Shown: positions 377-34,803 of the stretch, piece after piece
How positions within the stretch are numbered: position 1 is the stretch's first letter
How the letters are laid out: every line of letters begins with the position of its first letter
Origin: Octopus sinensis
Taxonomy: Eukaryota
Length of the DNA: 64,000 nucleotides
Assembly (NCBI RefSeq): GCF_006345805.1
Contig: NC_042997.1
Span: forward strand, 47,926,001 to 47,990,000
Direction: 5' to 3'
Translations under genes and position numbers: made by a program
The notes under the pieces: model-generated
Database searches by the model: none
Told to the model about the DNA's origin: nothing
The model's input: only the letters and a program-made list of their open reading frames with translations

Positions 377-577
377 CATAAATAATATCAGGGTGATAAA
401 AATTATAGAATTTTTTACTACCAGTGGCCTAACGTACAAGAAAATTAGTCAATAGACTATATATTATTCATATAAAATACAGTGTACATTCCTATGATGG
501 AAGCCTCTTAATGTGTTTTAACGTACACTGTATTTTATATTAAGTATATATATATATATATATAAATATATATATAT

Positions 578-1295: not shown

Positions 1296-3460
1296 TTTTA
1301 GAAAGTATTGAGCTGGTACAGGTGTCTGATAACATATCAAATTTTATTAGGAGATCAATGAAAAACAGGAATACAGAGTTAACTTCATTTTGGAAAATTT
1401 TGGTGGCGGTTAACATCAAGACAGGTATATTTCAGGGAGATAGCCTATCACAGGTGCTATTTGTCATTTGTATGATACCCTTCACACAGATACTATGCAA
1501 AGTTGTATCGGGGTGCACCTTGAAAAGTGGAGAAAAATTAAATCATGTTATATATGGGGGATTCACAGATCTTTGGAAAGACCGAATGTAAAATAAATGA
1601 CCTAGTCTCAACAGTGCAGATATTAGTAAGGATATCGGAATGGAATTTGGAGTAAAAAAGTGTGATATGCTTACAATATAAAGAGGTAAAATAGTGTCGT
1701 CTGATGGTGTAGGGCTACCCAACGGCTAGAAAATCAAGGATATTGAGACTAATGGGAATTTGGGAATACGATAAAATCGAGGAAAGTGAAAGAAAGCTTT
1801 AAGCGAGAATATTTCAGAAAAACCAAGTTAATTATCGGAAGTAGATCCAATGGCGAAAACAAAATCATGGCAATGAACACATAGGATGTTACCTTAAAAC
1901 GATAGAGCACAAGTGTTGTTAGGTGGACACAGAACGAGCTTGAAGAAATGGACAGAAAAATAGAAAAATGATTACTCTTTTTTCTCGCGGTATCATCCAG
2001 TCAGGCTGATTGCCCGGGCCAGCCTGACTATCTCTCTCTATCCCTCCTGATCTTCCATTAGTGTTTTTAGGTCTTCAAATTGGCATCCACCATCTTCTGC
2101 AAGCTGTTGTAAATAAATACGTCTTCTGTGGTCTTCCAGCCGCTGTGGTACCTTGATTTGGTGTCCACAGCAACACATTACTCACGAGTGCTTTACTTCT
2201 CCAGCAGTGGCAAGCAAAACTCAATCTTGGATGGTTGATGAGAAAGGTGGTACATTCCCATATAACCATTGTGTTTTGGGGTGCTCCCTTCAAGAGATGT
2301 TGAGCACTGCACGTAAAATTCTGTGTAGGCTCCGTCCGGCAAACACCTGAGTTTCTTTGTGAGAGTCCAAGTCGGAGATCCATATACAAGCACAGATTCA
2401 ATAACTGCTCCGTTAATTACATTAAAACCAATTGCAGCGAAGATTTACAATGCACTGCTACTCAATCGAATCCAACCTCAAATTGAAAGAGCTCTTAGGA
2501 GAAATCGATATGGATTCAGGAAGAGACGTTCTTCATCTGGATGATAATTAACAGAAAAGCGTGGTGAAACAGGTCTCATAGGACGCAAGATGTGTGTTCT
2601 CAACGAGGAGAACAGTATGGGATGGCACATCAAACAGCAGAGTGAATCCTTGCTTACCACTGTTAGAAGATTAACAATATAATACCTACTGAAGATGTGG
2701 TGCACCCACAATAATTTGAGAAACAAGATGAAGAAGAAAGAGTAAACAACTGGAAAATGAAACCACTGCATGGACAATACCGCAGCGAAATCGAAGGAAA
2801 AGACGAGATCAACATTTGGAGATGGCTAAGAAAAAGTCATCTGAAAGGATGCACTTAGGCATTCATATACAGCGCCAACGAATAAGCTCTGAGTACAAAT
2901 TACACCAAGTTCCAAATACAGAAGTGTAGTGAATCGCACCTTTGTAGGATGTGTGTCCAGCAGAAACGAAAGAATCTCAGATATTGTCAGTGAGTGTTGA
3001 AAGCTGGCCCAAAAAAACACTACAAAAAGAGGCACGATTACGTGGCTAAATTCATCCACTGGAGGCTATGGGAAAAGTAGGGCCTGAACAAAGCACAGAA
3101 ATGGTACTAACACGAACCAGCAGAAATCACCGAGAACAAGGAGCATAAGATTCTGAGGGATTTTGAAATCCGGTGTCACTACATAATCGAGGCTCGGAGA
3201 TCAGATATTGTTGTGGTAGATAAAGGAAAAAAAGAAACCAAGATCATAGATATTGCAACACATGGGGTTGCACGCATAAGTGGCAAGGAACTGGAAAAGA
3301 TTGAAAAGACTGAAAAGAATGTGGACTACGAGGAAAGAGTGTCATTCCAGTAGTTGTAGAGGCTCTGGGCGCACTAACAACCAAGTTCGAGAAATATATC
3401 AAAGAAATCAGAATTGACTTGTGAGCAGAGTAAGCCCCAAAAACTGCTCTGATAGGGACA
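1296..3460 (+). mobile_element. Decayed R4/Dong-like non-LTR retrotransposon (RT, CCHC knuckle, RLE), interrupted by an RTE fragment
   Basis: ORF 1322-1591 has the GIFQGDSLS RT motif; CRMC near 2940; 'RHDYVAKFIHW' near 3030-3060; 'EARRSDIVVVDK...IID' near 3190-3255. Many stops and frameshifts. Confidence 0.85.
1980..2545. mobile_element. RTE-clade LINE fragment with internal inversion
   Basis: Minus strand 1990-2405 gives (L)VYGSPTWTLTKK and LLWTP...GRPQKTY (RTE C-terminal region). Plus strand 2405-2540 gives ITLKPIAAKIYNALLLNRIQP...GFRKRRS (RT N-terminal region). Confidence 0.75.
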
Positions 3461-8349: not shown

Positions 8350-11300
8350 TGTAGTGTAAACAATTTTAGCGGTTATAATAATCGACTAAGGGACAAAATA
8401 TCCATATATACTATCGGTATCCGTTACCCGTGTTATCCCTGAGCACTGGTGTTCAGGCATACTATGCACGTAGCGTGCCGGCAACAAAAGGATAAACAAG
8501 AGTTTATCAGGAACCAATGAAAATAATCAGAAAATAGAGAAAACCCCAGATTAACAAGCTCACAGATTGGACCGCATTTATAGCTTATTTTTAATACAAA
8601 GCATGTCATAACAAATAGATGACGTAACATATCTTACGGCCGTTGCCGATCCGTTGCCAAAATGCTGTCTGTAAATAAATGCGAGAATAAAGTTCTTCAT
8701 CTTCATAGGACATTCGAATTAAGGTACGGAGCTTCATCAGAGTAAAAAACAAGACCATACAATATAAACAAAGGGGGAAAAGGAAAAGGAAAGAAAACAA
8801 AGCCTAGAAACAAGTCTAGAAGCCCAATATGTTAAAAGCATATAATCTACCATCTAGGGGCTACGAGGTTCGTAGGTAAAGAATGAGCTAGTAATGGTCT
8901 ACGGAATACTACAATTTGTAACAGGTAATTGCAATTTAAAGGATGGAGGCAGAATGTTTAAAAAATGTTATCAATGAAATATATATAAGGAAAATACTAA
9001 CATGATTATCAAAGGGCGATACCTATGCTAACGAGGTAAACTCTAGTAACTGCTTAAGAAAATTTATCACAGAAATTATTACCGAGAATCCCACCTATGT
9101 TCCAGCGGTCTCTACAATTGGTCAGGTACAATTTAAACCGAGGTCACAGGTTAAAACCTTTCCAATGGATTTGTCAATAAAATATACAAGAAAAGAAAAA
9201 AGTTCCGGAGTAGAAATCAATGATATAGGTGGTGTGGGGTCGCTTATGTCCTTCAGCATATTAATGTTATAACATGCATGAGGGAACAATGAAAAGAGAA
9301 AGGATCCACGGGTTGCGGTTATGGTAATTCCGCGATTCAATTAACGCTACGAGGAATTGAAATTGGACTAAACGCCATATATAGCGAATTGTGGTAATAA
9401 TTAGATATACAGGTGCGCAAGAAAGATCCACCTTATAGGTACACTACAATGCACGAATAAAAAATCACTTACAATTAAGCGGTTTATATTTAAGGCCAAA
9501 TCACATGTTGATAATTATCAAATAATGAAATACCCTAGTTGCCACAATATACTAAATATGCTTAATACGCAGTACATAGTCATTAAAGTTATATAGTTCC
9601 TATTACTGTAAAACAATTTACAAGAGTATATTGGCACTATATGAGTACAGTTAATACCGGGTCCGCTGGAAAATTAGTACTATGAGAAAAGTTACCTTAA
9701 TTGAAACAATTTACTAAACATACTTAAAAGCAATAAGAAATACCCTATGATAAGAATGAAATGCTAATCAAATCTGAACATTAAAAATTATAAACAAAGT
9801 TATAATAACTCAAAGTTGTTGCAAAAAATACTATTACAATCAATAGGTTGTGCTTATATCACATTACCCTCAAATTAGATTATTCTTATCCAAAAATCTA
9901 ATAATTTTAAATTATAATCAAATAATTAAGTGGGTGCAGCGATACAATTTCAATCAACGGGCAACACTTACCATTCTACATAGTACAACAGATTTATACA
10001 AATATCTTCTGGTAAGCCCAACTAACATAGTTCCACAAACAAACAGACACATACAATGCAAGGTGGGGGACGGTGGACATAGAGTATAATAAAATAAAGA
10101 AAAAGTAGCATATAATGAAAAATAAAATGAAAAAGTTCAATAAATCAAACATAGGGCAAATATTGTTCGCAAACATGTAGGGCTAATGACGTACATTAAA
10201 ATGGGGGAAAGGTAATGGGTGGAGGAAAGAATATCTAGTTAGTAGCGAAATAAGTCCAAATTCCAGCAAGGGCCGACAAATAATACATCCATGGGGTAAA
10301 AGGTGCTAGAGGGTAAAGAAAGCAAAAAAGATAGGAAAAGCTAAAATTGAAATTTGAATAAGATTTAGCATTTGAAGTAGTTATTAGGGGTAAAAGACTA
10401 TATGGTAGAAAACCTAAGGTCTTTGTGTTCTCGGATCAGTTTTAGTAGAAATAATAGGCATTAATACAAGGGGTTAGGGGATGATAATATTGGGAAAACG
10501 CTAATTGGTATAAGAAATAGATAACAGATATGGGTGGAGGGGATCATTTAAAACTTAGGAAAAGGGTAAGAGGACGGGTTAATTATTTGAATATCTACAA
10601 TAGTCTCAGTTATTCCTTACAAAACCAAATATAAATTAAGAAGTAAGATGCATAACTTACGTTATACTATCAAGGGCTACTATTATGGGGTAGTATAAGT
10701 ATTTCTAGTGTTATTTACATTTATCGAAAGTAGACCTCTCTTTGTGCAGGCAAGCTGCACTTTGCTCATCTCTCAAGTTCACTAGCGGATTGCATGCTGT
10801 TAGAATGTAAAAAAAATCGTTAATGCAAAGATAACATTTCCTTTTACTTTTATTATACGAAGTTGCAGTAACGAGGATCTCTAAATTTACTGTGAAACTA
10901 GTGTTACTATCTTTCAGCTCCCAAATCTACCTACTTAAACCTGTCGAATTAAGTTTCTATTTCTAAAATAATATTGGTACGTGGCTAGTCTTCATTTTGG
11001 GTTGCTCTAACGTAACTCATTTTGGTTGACTGTGTTATGACTGTACATTGGTAAATAACATCCTTAACTCTACAGCTGTTACCAAAGGCATAATTATTCC
11101 TGTTCCTACAGTTACATAAGTTATGCTGTGAGTGGGAAGTTGCTACCTAGTGGAGTAGGATTAGGTCTATTCACGTTAAATTGGTTATTTTCAGTTCTCA
11201 GAGTATTCTGTACTAAGGTTAGGGTAGTGTTTACTGTTATTGTTACTACTAATACCGCCGCCGATGCTATTTTTGTTTCTATTTGAGTAGAAAGCATCTA

Positions 11301-11905
11301 TTTTTTTCATTATTCAGGGTGGATATTATGCTTCCTAAATTATGTGTACTACTATTTATAAGTTTAGAATACCTATTATTCTTATCAAAATGCCCATTAA
11401 CAACTTTCAGTAATTGCTTAGCTATTTTAGTCCTTCTTTGCATTGCAAAAGAGATTATAAACCACATCTTATCTCCCGATTTTCCAGTAGATTCTTCGTG
11501 GATGGTGTGCTTATTGATATTATTTTTCCCGCGTCCATTGTCCCTCGTAGTTCTACCTAGTATGTCACTATTGTTTTCGTAGTTATTCATACAGTTACTA
11601 AATCTTGTCTTATTAGTATCATTTGCTGCTACTGCTGCTATCTGTGTATTTTTACAATGCTTGGGTGTATGACCATGCGCAATAATGTTGCGGTTAGCAT
11701 ATTCGCCATTACTACTGTCCATTTCACGCTCGTGTGGGAAATATTTAATTCGTTTTCCATACTCCGCCTCCATAAGTGTCTTATCGTATATATCCTTATG
11801 ACAATTAAATATGCCATCATTAGCTAAGAGATAGGAAATCCTTTTGCTAATGCCTCTAATTACTGATTATGGATGGTTACTTTGATAGTTTATATTCAGG
11901 TTCTA
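8350..11905 (-). mobile_element. 5'-truncated, decayed Penelope-like retroelement (RT thumb, CxCx5Cx5C-like zinc finger, GIY-YIG endonuclease, ~2.4 kb putative 3' UTR), probably Naiad clade
   Basis: Minus-strand translations: NINYQSNHP*SVIRGISKRIS (~11890-11830); WFIISF...KIAKQLLKVVNGHF (ORF 11279-11773); CNC-RNRNN-Y-AFGNS-C-RVKDVIYQC...SYVRAT (11116-11000); STGLSR*IWELKD...KCYLC...CLHKER, with stop near 10711. Both ends lie near (TA)n. Confidence 0.85.
8630..8744 (-). ncRNA. Degenerate hammerhead ribozyme near the 3' end of the Penelope-like element
   Basis: Minus strand: ct-CTGATGA-a-gctccgt...long loop...acggatc-g-GCAA-cggccg-TA-ag. Palindromic stem III ACGGCCGT; GAAA is mutated to GCAA. 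Confidence 0.6.
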
Positions 11906-11937
11906 TTTGCTAAGAATCCACCCTTTTAATATCTATG

Positions 11938-14745: not shown

Positions 14746-15050
14746 ACCATATATATTCATTTTATGATAACATGTTTGGCCATTGATATATTTATAAATA
14801 ATCTTAATTACTCATAATATATCCTTCGTACTGCTTTTACATTACTTTCTACTTATTTCAATTTTCCTAACTCATATCTGGTGATTTTGACGTGGCTCGA
14901 GATTACCAATCTTTGTACACAAGCGCTGTGCAAGGCATATGAATTTAAAACTTGATTGTGTTGATAGAAGTAGAAACATTTCTATTGCTAGCCGGGATTC
15001 AAGCTAACCGCAATGTAAAGTCTTGTTTTGATTTGTATCTATAGGAATAT

Positions 15051-15112
15051 TTCCCCTGACGAGGCGAATGGGTCCCTTAAGTTGTCCCTAACGCCGAAAT
15101 TGCAATGGGGAA
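15051..15112 (+). ncRNA. Minimal type-I hammerhead ribozyme, cleavage triplet AUG (probably inactive)
   Basis: ttccc-CTGACGA-ggcg...cgcc-GAAA-ttgcaa-TG-gggaa. Stem I 5 bp, stem II 4 bp, palindromic stem III ATTGCAAT. Confidence 0.75.
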
Positions 15113-15797: not shown

Positions 15798-15957
15798 CAT
15801 TATTATTATTATTATCATTATTATTATTATTCAGATGAACTCTGGGGGTGTATCAGCCGAAACGTTGTATTAAAAACAAAGAAGATGAGGACAAATATCC
15901 GTCAAATGTAAATGATGTAAATAACGTGCATAATTCCATATCTCTTAAATATAGAAC
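15371..15957. mobile_element. Inverted pair of hammerhead-bearing repeat ends around an (ATT)n microsatellite
   Basis: 15371-15457 is approximately the reverse complement of 15832-15916. Minus copy: atac-CTGATGA-a-ggctg..cagcc-GAAA-ct-TT. Plus copy: CAGATGA...cagcc-GAAA-cg-TT-gtat. Confidence 0.75.
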
Positions 15958-19875: not shown

Positions 19876-20553
19876 CACATTTTGTATATGGCTATATAAG
19901 TGTATGACTGTGTATATGTCTCATGGTGTATGTGTCTTTCCACGTTATGTACGTTATTAAACAAACACACACCTACACATACATATGTAAAGGTACGTTA
20001 CCAAGCATACACATCTACACGTACATATACATATGTGGCGACTGAGGTTTGTGTGTAACTGTACGTGCGTATATACATCTCATAGAGTGTGGGTCTTTTC
20101 GCGTTATGTACGTTATTAAACATACACACATCTACAGATGCATATACATATGTAACGGTACGTTATCAAACACACACATCCAAACATACATATGTGACGT
20201 TTGACAATAACGATGACGTCACATTTTGTATATGACAGTGTATCTCTCAGTAAATGTATGTGTGTGAGTATACGAGTGTGTATAGGTTTCACAGTGTGTG
20301 TCTTTCTGCGTTATGCGTCTCTGATGAGAACCCAATCAGGTCCGAAAATCGATTAAGGTCGTTCATCATCTTTTGAGTCTGCGGAGAAATGGCTAAAATT
20401 TGCCCTGTTTATAATCATGCCATATGTTACATTTAATAACCTACCTAACGCAGAATGACACACACACACACTGTGAGACATATACACACTTATACACTCA
20501 CGCACACACATTCACAGACAGATACAAAGCCATATACAAAACGTGATGTCGTC
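19876..20553. repeat. Diverged ~170-bp tandem array plus one inverted copy enclosing a hammerhead
   Basis: Unit motifs cacattttgtatatg (19876, 20220) and cgttatgtacgttattaaac (two copies); 20212-20313 is the diverged reverse complement of 20446-20553. Confidence 0.75.
20316..20359 (+). ncRNA. Minimal type-I hammerhead ribozyme (slightly degenerate)
   Basis: gtct-CTGATGA-gaacc caatca ggtcc-GAAA-atcgat-TA-aggt. Palindromic stem III AATCGATT, UUA triplet, one mismatch in stem II, weak stem I. Confidence 0.7.
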
Positions 20554-22149: not shown

Positions 22150-24400
22150 ATCTAACTAGACTGGAAATGTCGGCTTTTAAATAACTGGTCGAAGGCCAGA
22201 AATATTTGGCGATCAGAAATATAAATCTATTGTTCAAGTTTTCACACCTAAATGTAAATGCTATCATTGGGTCAATTTCAGCTTTAAATTTGCTGCTTGG
22301 TCTTACTTATAACTAATGTTTGAATAAGTACAGACGCGATGCCGGAACGGCAAATAGTCTTATGCTTGAAGAATATCTATATCTACGTTGACGAGTAGAT
22401 ATAACGTCTGTTTTTATAGATTACCAATTCTGTTTGATTACAATTTCTCCAGGTACAACATCTTATTGCTTATAAGGCCTACAGTCATGCAAGTCTCCAC
22501 TGATGTTTTCACTGAGAATATGTAAAGTATTTTTAGTGTATTTAACCACATAAAATTTATTAAAATCTCACGCTTCGGTACAGCACTTAAAAATTTTGAC
22601 AAGGCATAGGAGCAGGCAGAAGGAAGATGATTTTAAAATTATGTCGCTGAGGGCTGCGAGCTGGCAGAATCGTTAGCACGCCGGACGAAATGCTTAGCGG
22701 TATTTCGTCTGCTGTTTCGTTCTGAGTTCAAATTCCACCGAGGTCAACTTTGCCTTCCATCCCTTCGGGGTCGATTAAACAAGTACCAGTTACGCACTGG
22801 AGTCGATATAATCGACTTAATCCGTTTGTCTGTCCTTGTTTGTCCTCTCTGTGTTTAGTGCCTTGTGGGTATTAAAGAAATAGGTATTCGTCTGCCGTTA
22901 CGTTCAAATTCCACCGAGGTCGACGTTGCCTTTCATCCACTCGGGGTCAAAGAAATAAGCACCAGTTGCGCACTGAGGTCGATGTCATCGACTTAACCCC
23001 TTTGTCTGTCCTTGTTTGTCCCCTGTATGTTTAGCCCCCTGTGTGCAATATTGATCGAGATGATAACCATTAGGTATTGTTAAAATTAATCTCTGAATCT
23101 TCATTGATTAAATCCTTCTTGCTGTTGACTTGAAATTGCTGAAGAATCTCTATTACATGAGCATATAATTGTCTTTGAACTTTGGGAATTCTTCCCTCAC
23201 TAACTTGCAAACAGAATGATATGTCAGTCAAGCTTGAGAGGTAGTATCATTATTGCTGATACAGTTTTGCACTCACTTATTAGTGGTGAGATGAAGTACT
23301 TCTCATTCGTGCCAAATTATGGATTTTTTCCAAACATGCTCCAATCAGAGAAGACCTTTGTGCTCTTCGAACCACTGGAAGAATTTGACGAAAATCACCA
23401 CCTAAGATTATCAATTTGCTGCTAAAAATCAGGTCGTTGCTCAATACATTTTTCAGTGTTCGATTCAGCGCTTCAAATAGATAATGATGACACATTGGTG
23501 CCTCGTCCCAAACAATCAAGCGTGCATCATGGAGCAAACGGCCAGTGACATCGAGAGGAGATATTTTGCATGTTGAATTACAGTTTATCGGTATGGAGAG
23601 CTTGAATTGAGAGTGAGTAGTGCGACCTAGCTTCAAAAGAGTCGCAGCAATGCCTCATTATGCTGTCGCAATAACTAGTTGGTTGTTTTTGCGCACATAA
23701 AGCAGTAATTTATTAAGAAGAAAAGTTTTTCCAGTACCTCGGGGTCATCAATAAATATCAAGCCACCTTCACTTCTATCAATTTTCTATTGAATATTTTC
23801 AGAAATGATTCTCTGGTCATTATTTAGCTTATGGATGTTAGCATTGAAAAACTCAGGGATATTTTCAATTTTTATCATACCTGATTTACTGCATATACCA
23901 AAACTGGGATTGTTCACTGTTCCTCCCGTACGCTCTCCAATAAACATCAAAGCATTGCAATTGTAGCAACGCACTTCGACGAGGCCGCTACTATGGCGAG
24001 CAACGTCAACGGGAACCTGTAGAAGTCCACCTATATCATATTGTCGAGCTATATTAAGAGTCAGCCTATCATTGACTTGCCGACGTGTTCTGTGTTATGA
24101 TGCATTTTGTTCTAATATCTGCTCACGTTGTTCTTGTGACAGTTGTGGTCTTGCATCTCTATGCTGAGCAGCATCTAGTTCTATAATTTGCTTTCTTCGC
24201 TTCTGTGACTGCGCTAAACGGAGCTGACGCTGTCTTTTTGTGTTCCATTTACGTTGCTCTTCCTTCCGTTCTTGAGTTTGCTTCTATCTTCGTAATTGCT
24301 GACTCAAACATTTCGCAGTTCTTCTATAATTGGACATTTCCTTTTCTATAGACATAAATCTTAATTAAATATTTATCAATTAAATAGAATAGTATGAAAA
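22150..24400 (-). mobile_element. Internally deleted, decayed Helitron (N-terminal charged region, zinc finger, PIF1 helicase fragment)
   Basis: ATG at 24355 starts an R/Q/E-rich N-terminus; ORF 23786-23974 RCYNCNALMFIGE...C.KSG; frameshifted Walker A IFID.PG.TGKTFLL (~23760-23715); ORF 23280-23636 GRTTHS.FKL...LIVWDEAPM...GGDFRQILPVV; candidate CTAG|T 3' end near 22156. Confidence 0.85.
22650..23050 (+). mobile_element. SINE family A, full copy plus tandem partial second copy, nested in the Helitron
   Basis: gcgagctggcagaatcgttagcacgccgg...gagttcaaattcc...ccttccatcccttcggggtcgat, repeated from ~22885. Confidence 0.85.
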
Positions 24401-31198: not shown

Positions 31199-31262
31199 CA
31201 CGTGTGTACCGTTGGCGATTTTTTGCTCCGTCTTCCCTTCCTTGGATCTTTCCTTTTCCTAT

Positions 31263-31297
31263 GTTTCTGACGAAGAACTCCGCACGAAACGTTAAAT
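31263..31297 (+). ncRNA. Degenerate minimal hammerhead in a short repeat (~31200-31370) flanked by (TA)n
   Basis: gttt-CTGACGA-a-gaac tcc gcac-GAAA-cg-TT-aaat. Core intact, stem II decayed. Confidence 0.55.
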
Positions 31298-31365
31298 CCT
31301 TCTTCTTTCCTTCCTTTCCTGGGCGTCCAATAACACTATACTTGTTCCACGTCCTCGCGTTGTAG

Positions 31366-31397
<32 letters not shown>

Positions 31398-32300: not shown

Positions 32301-32964
32301 GGAAATAGAGATATTGTGAAAGAGAAAGAGAAACAGTATGGAATAGACCCCGTTAAGAGAGATGTAATCCCCTCGTTCAAATCGCTCTGCGTAGTTTAAG
32401 AATAATTCAGTTTGCTCAAAGTTTCCTACGGGAATATATATATTCATAATATTAATGCAAACAAAGCAAGATGTGTTTAAGAAAATTTATACGTTAGGCA
32501 CTGGAGTGAAAACCAAAACACTGTAATTTTCAATTATATGCCAAGGCGGTTAAATGGGCAGAATTTCAGATCGTAGATATACATTTTAATTGCTGATCCG
32601 GTATCGACACTTGGTTACAATTCTGTTTTAAAAGATGTATGTCTAGTTAATCAGAGAATTGTTCAACGTGCTCACTCGATCTGTTATAGATAAGAACCAG
32701 ATTTATCTTAAATTACTGATAGTATTATAGAGATTAATATTATACATAGATTAAAGTAGTTCCAATTTAAAAATTTTGAAAATATGATGATATGAATGAG
32801 GCTAAAACAATTTTAATAATAATCATCTGCAAGAGGATTAATAACTGGCGCTGTAATATAACACCTTACACACTAGTTAAACAATTGCAACCACGTACTA
32901 CATTTTTACTGCCAACATTATAAAAACACCAAAAGTTTTAGACTTATTATTTATGAGTCATTTA

Positions 32965-33178: not shown

Positions 33179-34305
33179 TTATTTATAGTTATATTCACTG
33201 AAATATCTTCCATATTTGATAATTTTAAGTTAGTGGTGATGCGAAAAGCAAAATGTTATAGTCTTGCTCATCGTTGTCCATTCCTAAGATATATTATGTA
33301 GGAATATATAATCCAACATGCCCTTACTTTAAGATGGTGTGTTGCGATTTCAAAGAGATTTAGTGGTTAGTAGTAAAAAGGCAAGCAGCGATCCCTACGT
33401 TTGCCTCAATGAGCTCTCGTTACTCATTGGCTCGTTAATCACTCTGATTTGGAGAACTTTCTTAAATTATATTACCCTAGGCTTTGCTTCTTTTTTTTTC
33501 TTTTTGAAAATAAATGTAGATTAGAGAAAAAATTCTACTGTTTATTCATAAAATTCTTTTGAAGACCCATGATATATACTTGTATCACTATAATTGGATA
33601 CAATTTTTCAAAAGTGCTTTGGCCATTGATATTAATGATGTCAGAATGATATTCAAATCAATTTGTTATTGTATACAAATAAGGAATTTAGAAATCAAAA
33701 TGATTTATAAGCAAATGACTGAAACATATGTTAACTACGTTCCAAAAATGTTAATAGGGTTATTTAGCATACAACAAAAACAGAAACAGTGATATTGCCT
33801 GTAGATTCATTGCTATATACATGTACATTAGACAGCTCAATTATTCAAATCCGTTTCACTTTCAGACGAAATCTTTTCAGTGGTGAAGCGAATATATTCT
33901 GGGTAAGACATTCAACAATCAGACAGAATATATCAGCATTAATGAATTTCGTAATAATAACACATTGCTGAAGATTCAAGGTTTTCTTTCGTAAACGTAG
34001 ACGACTTACTAATAATAAACATTTGCATTTCTATTAATTTTATCGATATATATTACATCGTAATTATATACATAATGTGTTTTTGTCGCAGTAAAAGTTG
34101 ATGACAACGATTACGTTTATTGTGAACAGGGTCGTTCTCATAAAGAAAATATTATTGCAATATTTTAACAAAAGAAAATCAAAGTCTCTCACAATGATTT
34201 ACATAAATTGCAAAAACACACGCGCGCACACACATACACACGTATACTCAAAAACACGTGTGCATGCACGTTCATATATATATATATAATATAATATGAT
34301 ATATA

Positions 34306-34375
34306 TCCGCTGATGAGAGCTTCGCCTAGCAAATTATTTTATTTGCTAATTAAAAGTTCGAAACCTAGGTCCGGA
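34306..34375 (+). ncRNA. Apparently intact minimal type-I hammerhead ribozyme
   Basis: tccg-CTGATGA-gagctt[cgcc tagcaaat tatttt atttgcta attaa]aagttc-GAAA-cctagg-TC/cgga. All core nucleotides present, G10.1-C11.1 pair, palindromic stem III ACCTAGGT, GUC triplet with predicted cut after 34371. Confidence 0.88.
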
Positions 34376-34568
34376 AAAATATATTAAATTTTTCTATTTT
34401 TTTTATTACCTCTGAAATTGCTCTTAACTGTGGTTTGAACTTTGACTTCTAGTATGTAAGGCGTTCTGTTATGGTCACCGGTTTTGTGTTTAAATGTACA
34501 CTAATTTTGTATGTGTTTATAAATATATATATATATATAAATTTATATGTGTCTCTGTGTGTGTATGT

Positions 34569-34803
34569 GAGGGCGTGTGGCTTAGTGGTTAGGGCATTCG
34601 CCTCACAATCGTAAGGACGTGAGTTCAAGTCCCGGCGACGCGTTGTGTGCTTGAGTAAGACACTTTATTTCCCTTGCTCCAGTCCACTCAGCTGACAAAA
34701 ATGAGTAGTACCTGTATTTCAAAGGACCAGCCTTGTCCCACTCTGTGTCACGCTGAATCTCCCTGAGAACTACGTTAAGGATACACGTGTCAGTGAAGTC
34801 CTC
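34569..34803 (+). mobile_element. tRNA-derived SINE (family B)
   Basis: ggcttagtggttaggg...gagttcaagtccc head (A/B boxes) and the shared core ccagtccactcagctg. Confidence 0.85.

Follow-up and report, generated by a model that had tools for sequence, protein, structure and literature searches.

Does the hammerhead-like sequence embedded among TA repeats at this locus still encode an RNA that cuts itself, and what kind of element left it there? The answer depends on how complete the motif is, on how its transcript is predicted to fold, and on what can be read from the DNA around it. All positions refer to the window, the whole 64-kb stretch of Octopus sinensis DNA that was analysed. Two published groups of hammerheads serve as the reference. 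Canonical metazoan hammerheads have a helix I of 6 bp, a helix II of 4 bp and loop-loop contacts, whereas in those of Penelope-like retroelements (PLEs) helix I is short (4-5 bp), helix II is long, helix III is palindromic and A9 is usually followed by an extra base (PMC4209133). The accessible portions of two reviews, PMC6765202 and PMC7761336, agree with the general picture of hammerhead elements.

Architecture of the motif

Direct reading and a descriptor scan place a type I hammerhead motif at 34310-34371 on the + strand, held between the two strands of helix I. Its parts are as follows.

34306-34309 (+): 5' strand of helix I, 4 nt, partner of 34372-34375; present in the MFE and centroid folds and in the descriptor scan
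34310-34316 (+): catalytic core C3 to A9, CTGATGA, the extra nucleotide before G10.1 being absent; direct reading and descriptor scan
34317-34359 (+): helix II overall, 6 bp, a 4x5 internal loop and an 8-bp hairpin
34360-34363 (+): core G12 to A15.1, GAAA; direct reading and descriptor scan
34363-34370 (+): palindromic helix III, ACCTAGGT, 8 nt; 2 bp and a tetraloop in a monomer, an 8-bp duplex between two molecules
34369-34371 (+): GUC triplet with C17 at 34371; cleavage predicted 3' of 34371, a position taken from the hammerhead consensus
34372-34375 (+): 3' strand of helix I; in the MFE and centroid folds and in the descriptor scan

The elements CUGANGA, GAAA and UH follow one another in the order that defines a type I core. 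Three helices surround them, with helix I open-ended and a G10.1-C11.1 pair in place; helix III is marginal in a monomer, where it is limited to 2 bp and a 4-nt loop. The 6 bp of helix II (34317-34322/34354-34359) include one G-U pair and end in G10.1-C11.1 as the closing pair, and the two strands of the 8-bp hairpin that extends the helix (34327-34334/34341-34348) are 100% complementary. The perfect core, the stems I to III, the palindrome of stem III and the GUC site that the original prediction had described are all confirmed by the reading and the descriptor scan.

A strict descriptor, requiring at least 4 pairs in helix I, 4 in helix II and 3 in helix III, finds this motif as its sole match on both strands of the window and matches 0 of 100 block-wise dinucleotide shuffles, its criteria having been chosen after the motif was seen. 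A looser 4/3/2 setting matches one of the 100 shuffles. A looser core pattern gives 15 matches in the window against a shuffle mean of 6.4 (5/100 shuffles), and it failed to catch the focal motif because the spacer is 43 nt long. The Rfam scan of the window returned 0 matches at the gathering score. The best model of the hammerhead clan CL00010, RF02275 (Hammerhead_HH9), matches weakly at 34295-34394 (+): it scores 17.7 bits (E 0.35) where 52 are needed, so that by Rfam's rule the motif does not belong. Of the hammerhead-like cores in the window, this one is the most intact, and it is a genuine type I motif.

Predicted folding and cleavage

The predicted fold of 34300-34380 (MFE -16.5, centroid -14.6) contains helices I and II, and helix III is absent from both structures. 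Forming the 2-bp helix III costs +0.6 kcal/mol in a monomer, whereas the palindrome duplex between two molecules has an energy of -11.4 kcal/mol; action as a dimer is therefore favoured. Two segments downstream of the cut site are predicted to interfere with the active fold.

34373-34395 (+): predicted hairpin of 8 bp, -4.0 kcal/mol, which would sequester the 3' side of helix I
34432-34443 (+): putative masking segment, 12 nt, complementary to 34353-34365 except for a bulged G12; in the predicted folds it covers helix II and GAAA

Helix II combined with the hairpin comes to -16.8, about 2 kcal/mol below the fold with helices I and II, the two values being taken over different end points. By eye, helix I may extend outwards past an A-rich bulge. 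In a growing transcript that starts at 34308, the probability of helix II stays at 0.87-0.97 until 34410, has fallen to 0.01 at 34430 and is 0.00 from 34445 on, where 34432-34443 is predicted to be paired with 34353-34365. Most folding runs began at 34308 and therefore do not include the outer two pairs of helix I.

The motif on its own is thus predicted to cut poorly. The claim that it is still active is not supported by these folds, in which the monomer is predicted to lack helix III, the hairpin competes for helix I and helix II is predicted to be lost past about 34430. Weak activity is itself a prediction, because ViennaRNA ignores tertiary contacts and Mg2+. By analogy, monomer cleavage in vitro is quite possible, because monomeric cutting is known from invertebrate hammerheads whose helix III is similar (PMC7229834). 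According to that paper, retrozyme motifs with a helix III of 2 bp and a tetraloop cut as monomers, the coral one at about 0.8 per min and the mussel one at about 0.1 per min, and 22% of an axolotl motif with a 2-bp helix III is cut in an hour. PLE-type hammerheads favour dimers and are described as weak in vitro, their minimal motifs having no monomer activity and little activity as dimers in the assays covered by the accessible text of PMC4209133.

Flanks, boundaries and copies

TA-rich repeats lie immediately upstream of the motif, and the following features lie downstream of helix I.

34376-34522 (+): non-coding AT-rich tail, likely the rest of a pseudo-LTR or repeat unit, with a boundary inferred from the microsatellite only
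34523-34538: (TA)8 run, the likely insertion target, beginning 152 nt past the cut site
34566-34707 (+): tRNA-like SINE head, directly after the module and outside it; 23.3 bits with the tRNA model, cut-off 29

Delimited by these flanks, the unit measures about 215 bp, has a G+C content of 31% and contains no ORF of at least 100 codons. A module of about 220 bp in (TA)n had been proposed; the TA repeats are present on both sides, but the limits stay putative, as there is no second copy in the window to define them. Comparable runs (at most 40 nt upstream and at most 230 nt downstream) surround about 1% of the non-repeat positions of the window. The flanks form a compound microsatellite, CA-rich, then TA, then TG-rich, of a kind common in the window, and this composition is consistent with insertion.

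Neither a tandem unit nor a second copy of the module was found within the 64-kb window. The best local alignments of the tail against the window score at most 42, with a null of 40-57 from 25 shuffles. Two look-alikes, at 512-540 and 32854-32876, were rejected as second copies because their tail alignments fall within the shuffle null and are no better than shuffles. The idea that the tail is an old inverted duplicate of the ribozyme was likewise rejected, as 757 of 2000 shuffles align equally well, and the tail alone gives a z of 0.06 as a structured RNA. Four copies related to the SINE head occur in the window, with identities of 72-88%.

Beyond the window, five sequencing runs from four studies and two organisms hold 0.39-0.78 of 18 sampled module words, and the best holder may be the source. 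Nine of the 24 rows hold part of the module, with four shares below 0.2 left unused, and no RNA run is listed among the sequencing runs that hold module words. These matches suggest real, shared DNA, in which word shares do not separate the locus from family copies.

Scans for the core with its palindrome in viral, metagenome and prokaryotic collections returned five viral, two metagenome and two genome loci. All nine were rejected as homologues, with nothing beyond the pattern or chance-level matches to the module, and in one of them the match lies inside a long ORF. A Legionella waltersii contig carries a complete type I hammerhead motif at 2001-2036 (+), in which helices I and II are 5 bp each and the 8-nt palindrome is identical to that of the octopus motif; it was found through that shared palindrome and is not homologous to the octopus module. 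A metagenome contig of 32% G+C has the same core and palindrome at 382-433 (+), with a possible 4-bp helix I and a poorly paired helix II.

Origin of the module

A mobile element inserted in (TA)n is the best account of the origin, as the first reading held. We consider it probable that the module is a lone pseudo-LTR left by a PLE or by a non-autonomous derivative of one, adapted to act as a dimer and predicted to be weak alone. In the parent element, two hammerheads would have paired through the palindromic helix III and cut the RNA after GUC, as the palindrome and the published PLE hammerheads suggest. Reverse transcription, presumably primed at a microsatellite, would have stopped just past helix I and left about 215 bp. 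At the present locus, cutting would be confined to a short window of transcription, before the predicted refolding of the RNA by the hairpin and the 12-nt tail segment, and no effect on a host gene would be expected. The motif is predicted to cut weakly because it has no partner copy. Several PLE clades are biased towards insertion in microsatellites (10.1101/2021.04.23.441226), and 31 PLE families have been active recently in O. vulgaris (PMC13282606).

The architecture argues for this origin in several respects. The PLE pattern of a short helix I, a long helix II and a palindromic helix III is found here as 4 bp in helix I and 6 bp plus 8 bp in helix II. The octopus motif thus shares with PLE hammerheads (PMC4209133) the type I topology, the 4-bp helix I, the long helix II and the small palindromic helix III, together with AU-rich flanks and a dispersed single copy. 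In that paper most PLE hammerheads occur singly and dispersed, and the 3' hammerhead is the only one left in PLEs truncated at the 5' end. The Drosophila willistoni PLE hammerhead also has an 8-nt palindrome, and one from Saccoglossus (2) combines, as in octopus, a helix I of 4 bp with the lack of an extra nucleotide after A9 (PMC4209133). Unlike PLE hammerheads, the octopus motif has a helix II extended by an internal loop and an 8-bp hairpin. It also departs from their consensus in that the extra nucleotide between A9 and G10.1 is absent, a feature that two published examples share (PMC4209133), and unlike PLE elements it has no adjoining PLE ORF. By analogy, the motif functions in the manner of a PLE or retrozyme hammerhead; it is not established as a member of either element family, since the 64-kb window has no tandem unit and an adjoining element ORF was not found for this copy.

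No adjoining RT/GIY-YIG ORF and no second pseudo-LTR for the focal motif was found in the window. The nearest PLE-like remnant lies about 22 kb away on the opposite strand, in a decayed ORF at about 10710-11930 (-) that starts at an (AT)n run. Its motifs are those that we take to be a PLE linker and a C-terminal endonuclease. For the remnant at 11282-11866, Pfam returned 0 families, a homologue search found none among 415 candidates, and the Atlas gave only matches under 0.9. The descriptor finds no hammerhead core downstream of the decayed ORF.

If the module is such a PLE remnant, the locus matters little, since motifs of this sort number thousands in animal genomes (PMC4209133, PMC7229834) and four cores occur in this window; cephalopods would be added to the list of hammerhead carriers. 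Our literature search found no paper on octopus hammerheads, and the supplementary lists of earlier surveys may include cephalopod cases. The words "hammerhead" and "ribozyme" have 0 occurrences in the accessible main text of the O. vulgaris repeat annotation (PMC13282606), and no cephalopod is among the species given in the accessible part of supplementary file 2 of PMC4209133, where "octopus" has 0 occurrences.

Alternative readings

The strongest alternative, possible though distinctly less likely, is that a non-LTR retrozyme left the module behind as a solo monomer. Its tandem copies elsewhere would give transcripts that are cut into monomers of about 215 nt and circularised, and the tail would fold back onto the core and so prevent the circle from being cut again. 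A retrozyme monomer fits the size and the 31% G+C equally well, which counts against the PLE reading: published units measure 150-450 bp with a G+C below 50% (PMC7229834), and solo monomers are common (10.64898/2026.07.22.740005). The octopus module has in common with metazoan non-LTR retrozymes (PMC7229834, 10.64898/2026.07.22.740005) the type I topology, a helix III of 2 bp and a tetraloop, the unit length, the low G+C, the absence of an ORF and the occurrence as monomers. It differs from them in that the 64-kb window holds no tandem array of the unit and in helix sizes that are not the canonical 6 bp and 4 bp. This reading overlaps that of a PLE remnant, because retrozymes have been proposed to derive from pseudo-LTRs (10.64898/2026.07.22.740005).

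The pairing between the ribozyme and its tail is the further point in favour of a retrozyme. This duplex has an energy of -32.1 kcal/mol, matched by 3 of 1000 and 2 of 500 shuffles. For the 3' half alone, 20 of 2000 shuffles reach the duplex, as do 5 of 857 genomic pieces, and none of six other cores tested for tail pairing is similar (56-359 of 500 shuffles). Against this, 2 of 89 arbitrary genomic pieces reach an equal z-score, and the tail-pairing test was chosen after the fold had been seen, which leaves its significance modest. Shuffles equal the 12-bp run in 11 of 300 cases, and the fold of the whole module is unexceptional, 27 of 200 shuffles folding as well in linear form and 37 of 300 in circular form.

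The same pairing could be read as an off-switch. A cephalopod retrozyme family that targets (TA)n would cut briefly during transcription, and the 12-nt tail segment would then lock the circle of about 215 nt; we regard this model as quite unlikely. Such locking would be as in plant retrozymes and viroids, whereas most metazoan retrozyme circles are predicted, in the accessible text of PMC7229834, to leave the core free. How animal ribozyme circles avoid re-cutting is a question left open in that text, and a tail that proved to be a selected blocker would provide a testable answer to it.

It is also improbable that the motif acts on the host by efficiently cutting a + strand transcript across the locus, be it an intron or a long non-coding RNA, and was perhaps retained for that purpose. 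Its core is undamaged while the other cores of the window fail the strict scan, near-identical sequence is present in the five runs described above, whose best holder may be the source, and the predicted stability of helix II up to about 34410 would leave a window for co-transcriptional cutting. The predicted competing folds speak against it, as do eight of nine predicted Xenopus dimers, which did not cut (10.64898/2026.07.22.740005), and so does the gene content of the window. Among 218 stop-to-stop ORFs of at least 55 codons, a set from which low-complexity ORFs and those overlapping 34200-34600 were left out, one passes the Pfam cut-off, a PIF1 helicase fragment at 23283-23654 (-). The upstream ORF 33520-33789 has a Pol_BBD match with an E of 0.0085, below the cut-off, and was treated as noise.

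No + strand host gene was thus found in the window among ORFs of at least 55 codons with Pfam. A host intron is unsupported rather than excluded, because exons of fewer than 55 codons escape the scan. The one gene model that was mapped runs on the - strand. It belongs to CAI9716818.1, a hypothetical protein of Octopus vulgaris retrieved through the ORF remnant 11282-11866, which maps (-) in three colinear pieces, 30459-30298, 24355-23738 and 11797-11552, with identities of 98, 81 and 91%; the model starts 3.85 kb from the hammerhead. Through this match the window can be placed as octopus DNA, at the corresponding locus of O. vulgaris or a closely related species. CAI9716818.1 is probably a spurious gene model assembled from transposon pieces, because it ends in the PLE-like remnant and runs beside the PIF1 fragment. 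The proposal that the ribozyme would cut any + strand transcript, for example a host intron, is unsupported.

A chance arrangement in AT-rich repeat DNA would account for the scores below every Rfam cut-off and for the lack of a homologue in the window and in the viral, metagenome and prokaryotic collections, but it is hardly credible. None of the 100 shuffles yields a match under the strict descriptor, and cores that have G10.1-C11.1 and at least 4 helix II pairs number four in the window, against a mean of 0.08 in 200 shuffles, 0 of which reach that number.

Other hammerhead-like cores in the window

Three of these four cores (15056, 20321 and 34310) carry an 8-nt palindrome, for which a by-hand estimate gives a chance of about 1 in 64 per core. 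The palindromes all differ in sequence, and the cores have no extra base after A9. This points to selection for dimer pairing, because the palindrome recurs in three of the four cores and is different in each.

A stretch of about 170 bp at 31199-31372 (+) lies between two (TA)n runs and has a minimal hammerhead-like core at 31267; it has no second copy in the window. Both this stretch and the focal module end in GTGTTT ahead of a TA run. Helix III of the near-intact core at 20321 (+) is a different 8-nt palindrome; position 17 is an A there, and helix II contains a single A-C mismatch.

The cores at 15056 (+) and 15457 (-) lie 400 bp apart in facing orientation, beside a (TTA)n array. The core at 15056 should not cut, because position 17 is a G, despite its 8-nt palindrome. 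Parts of the block around this pair recur nearby, at 14759-14821 and 15834-15922, as direct (90%) and inverted (86%) repeats. The layout of the facing cores resembles a complex PLE insertion, and facing pairs have also been reported for PLE hammerheads (PMC4209133).
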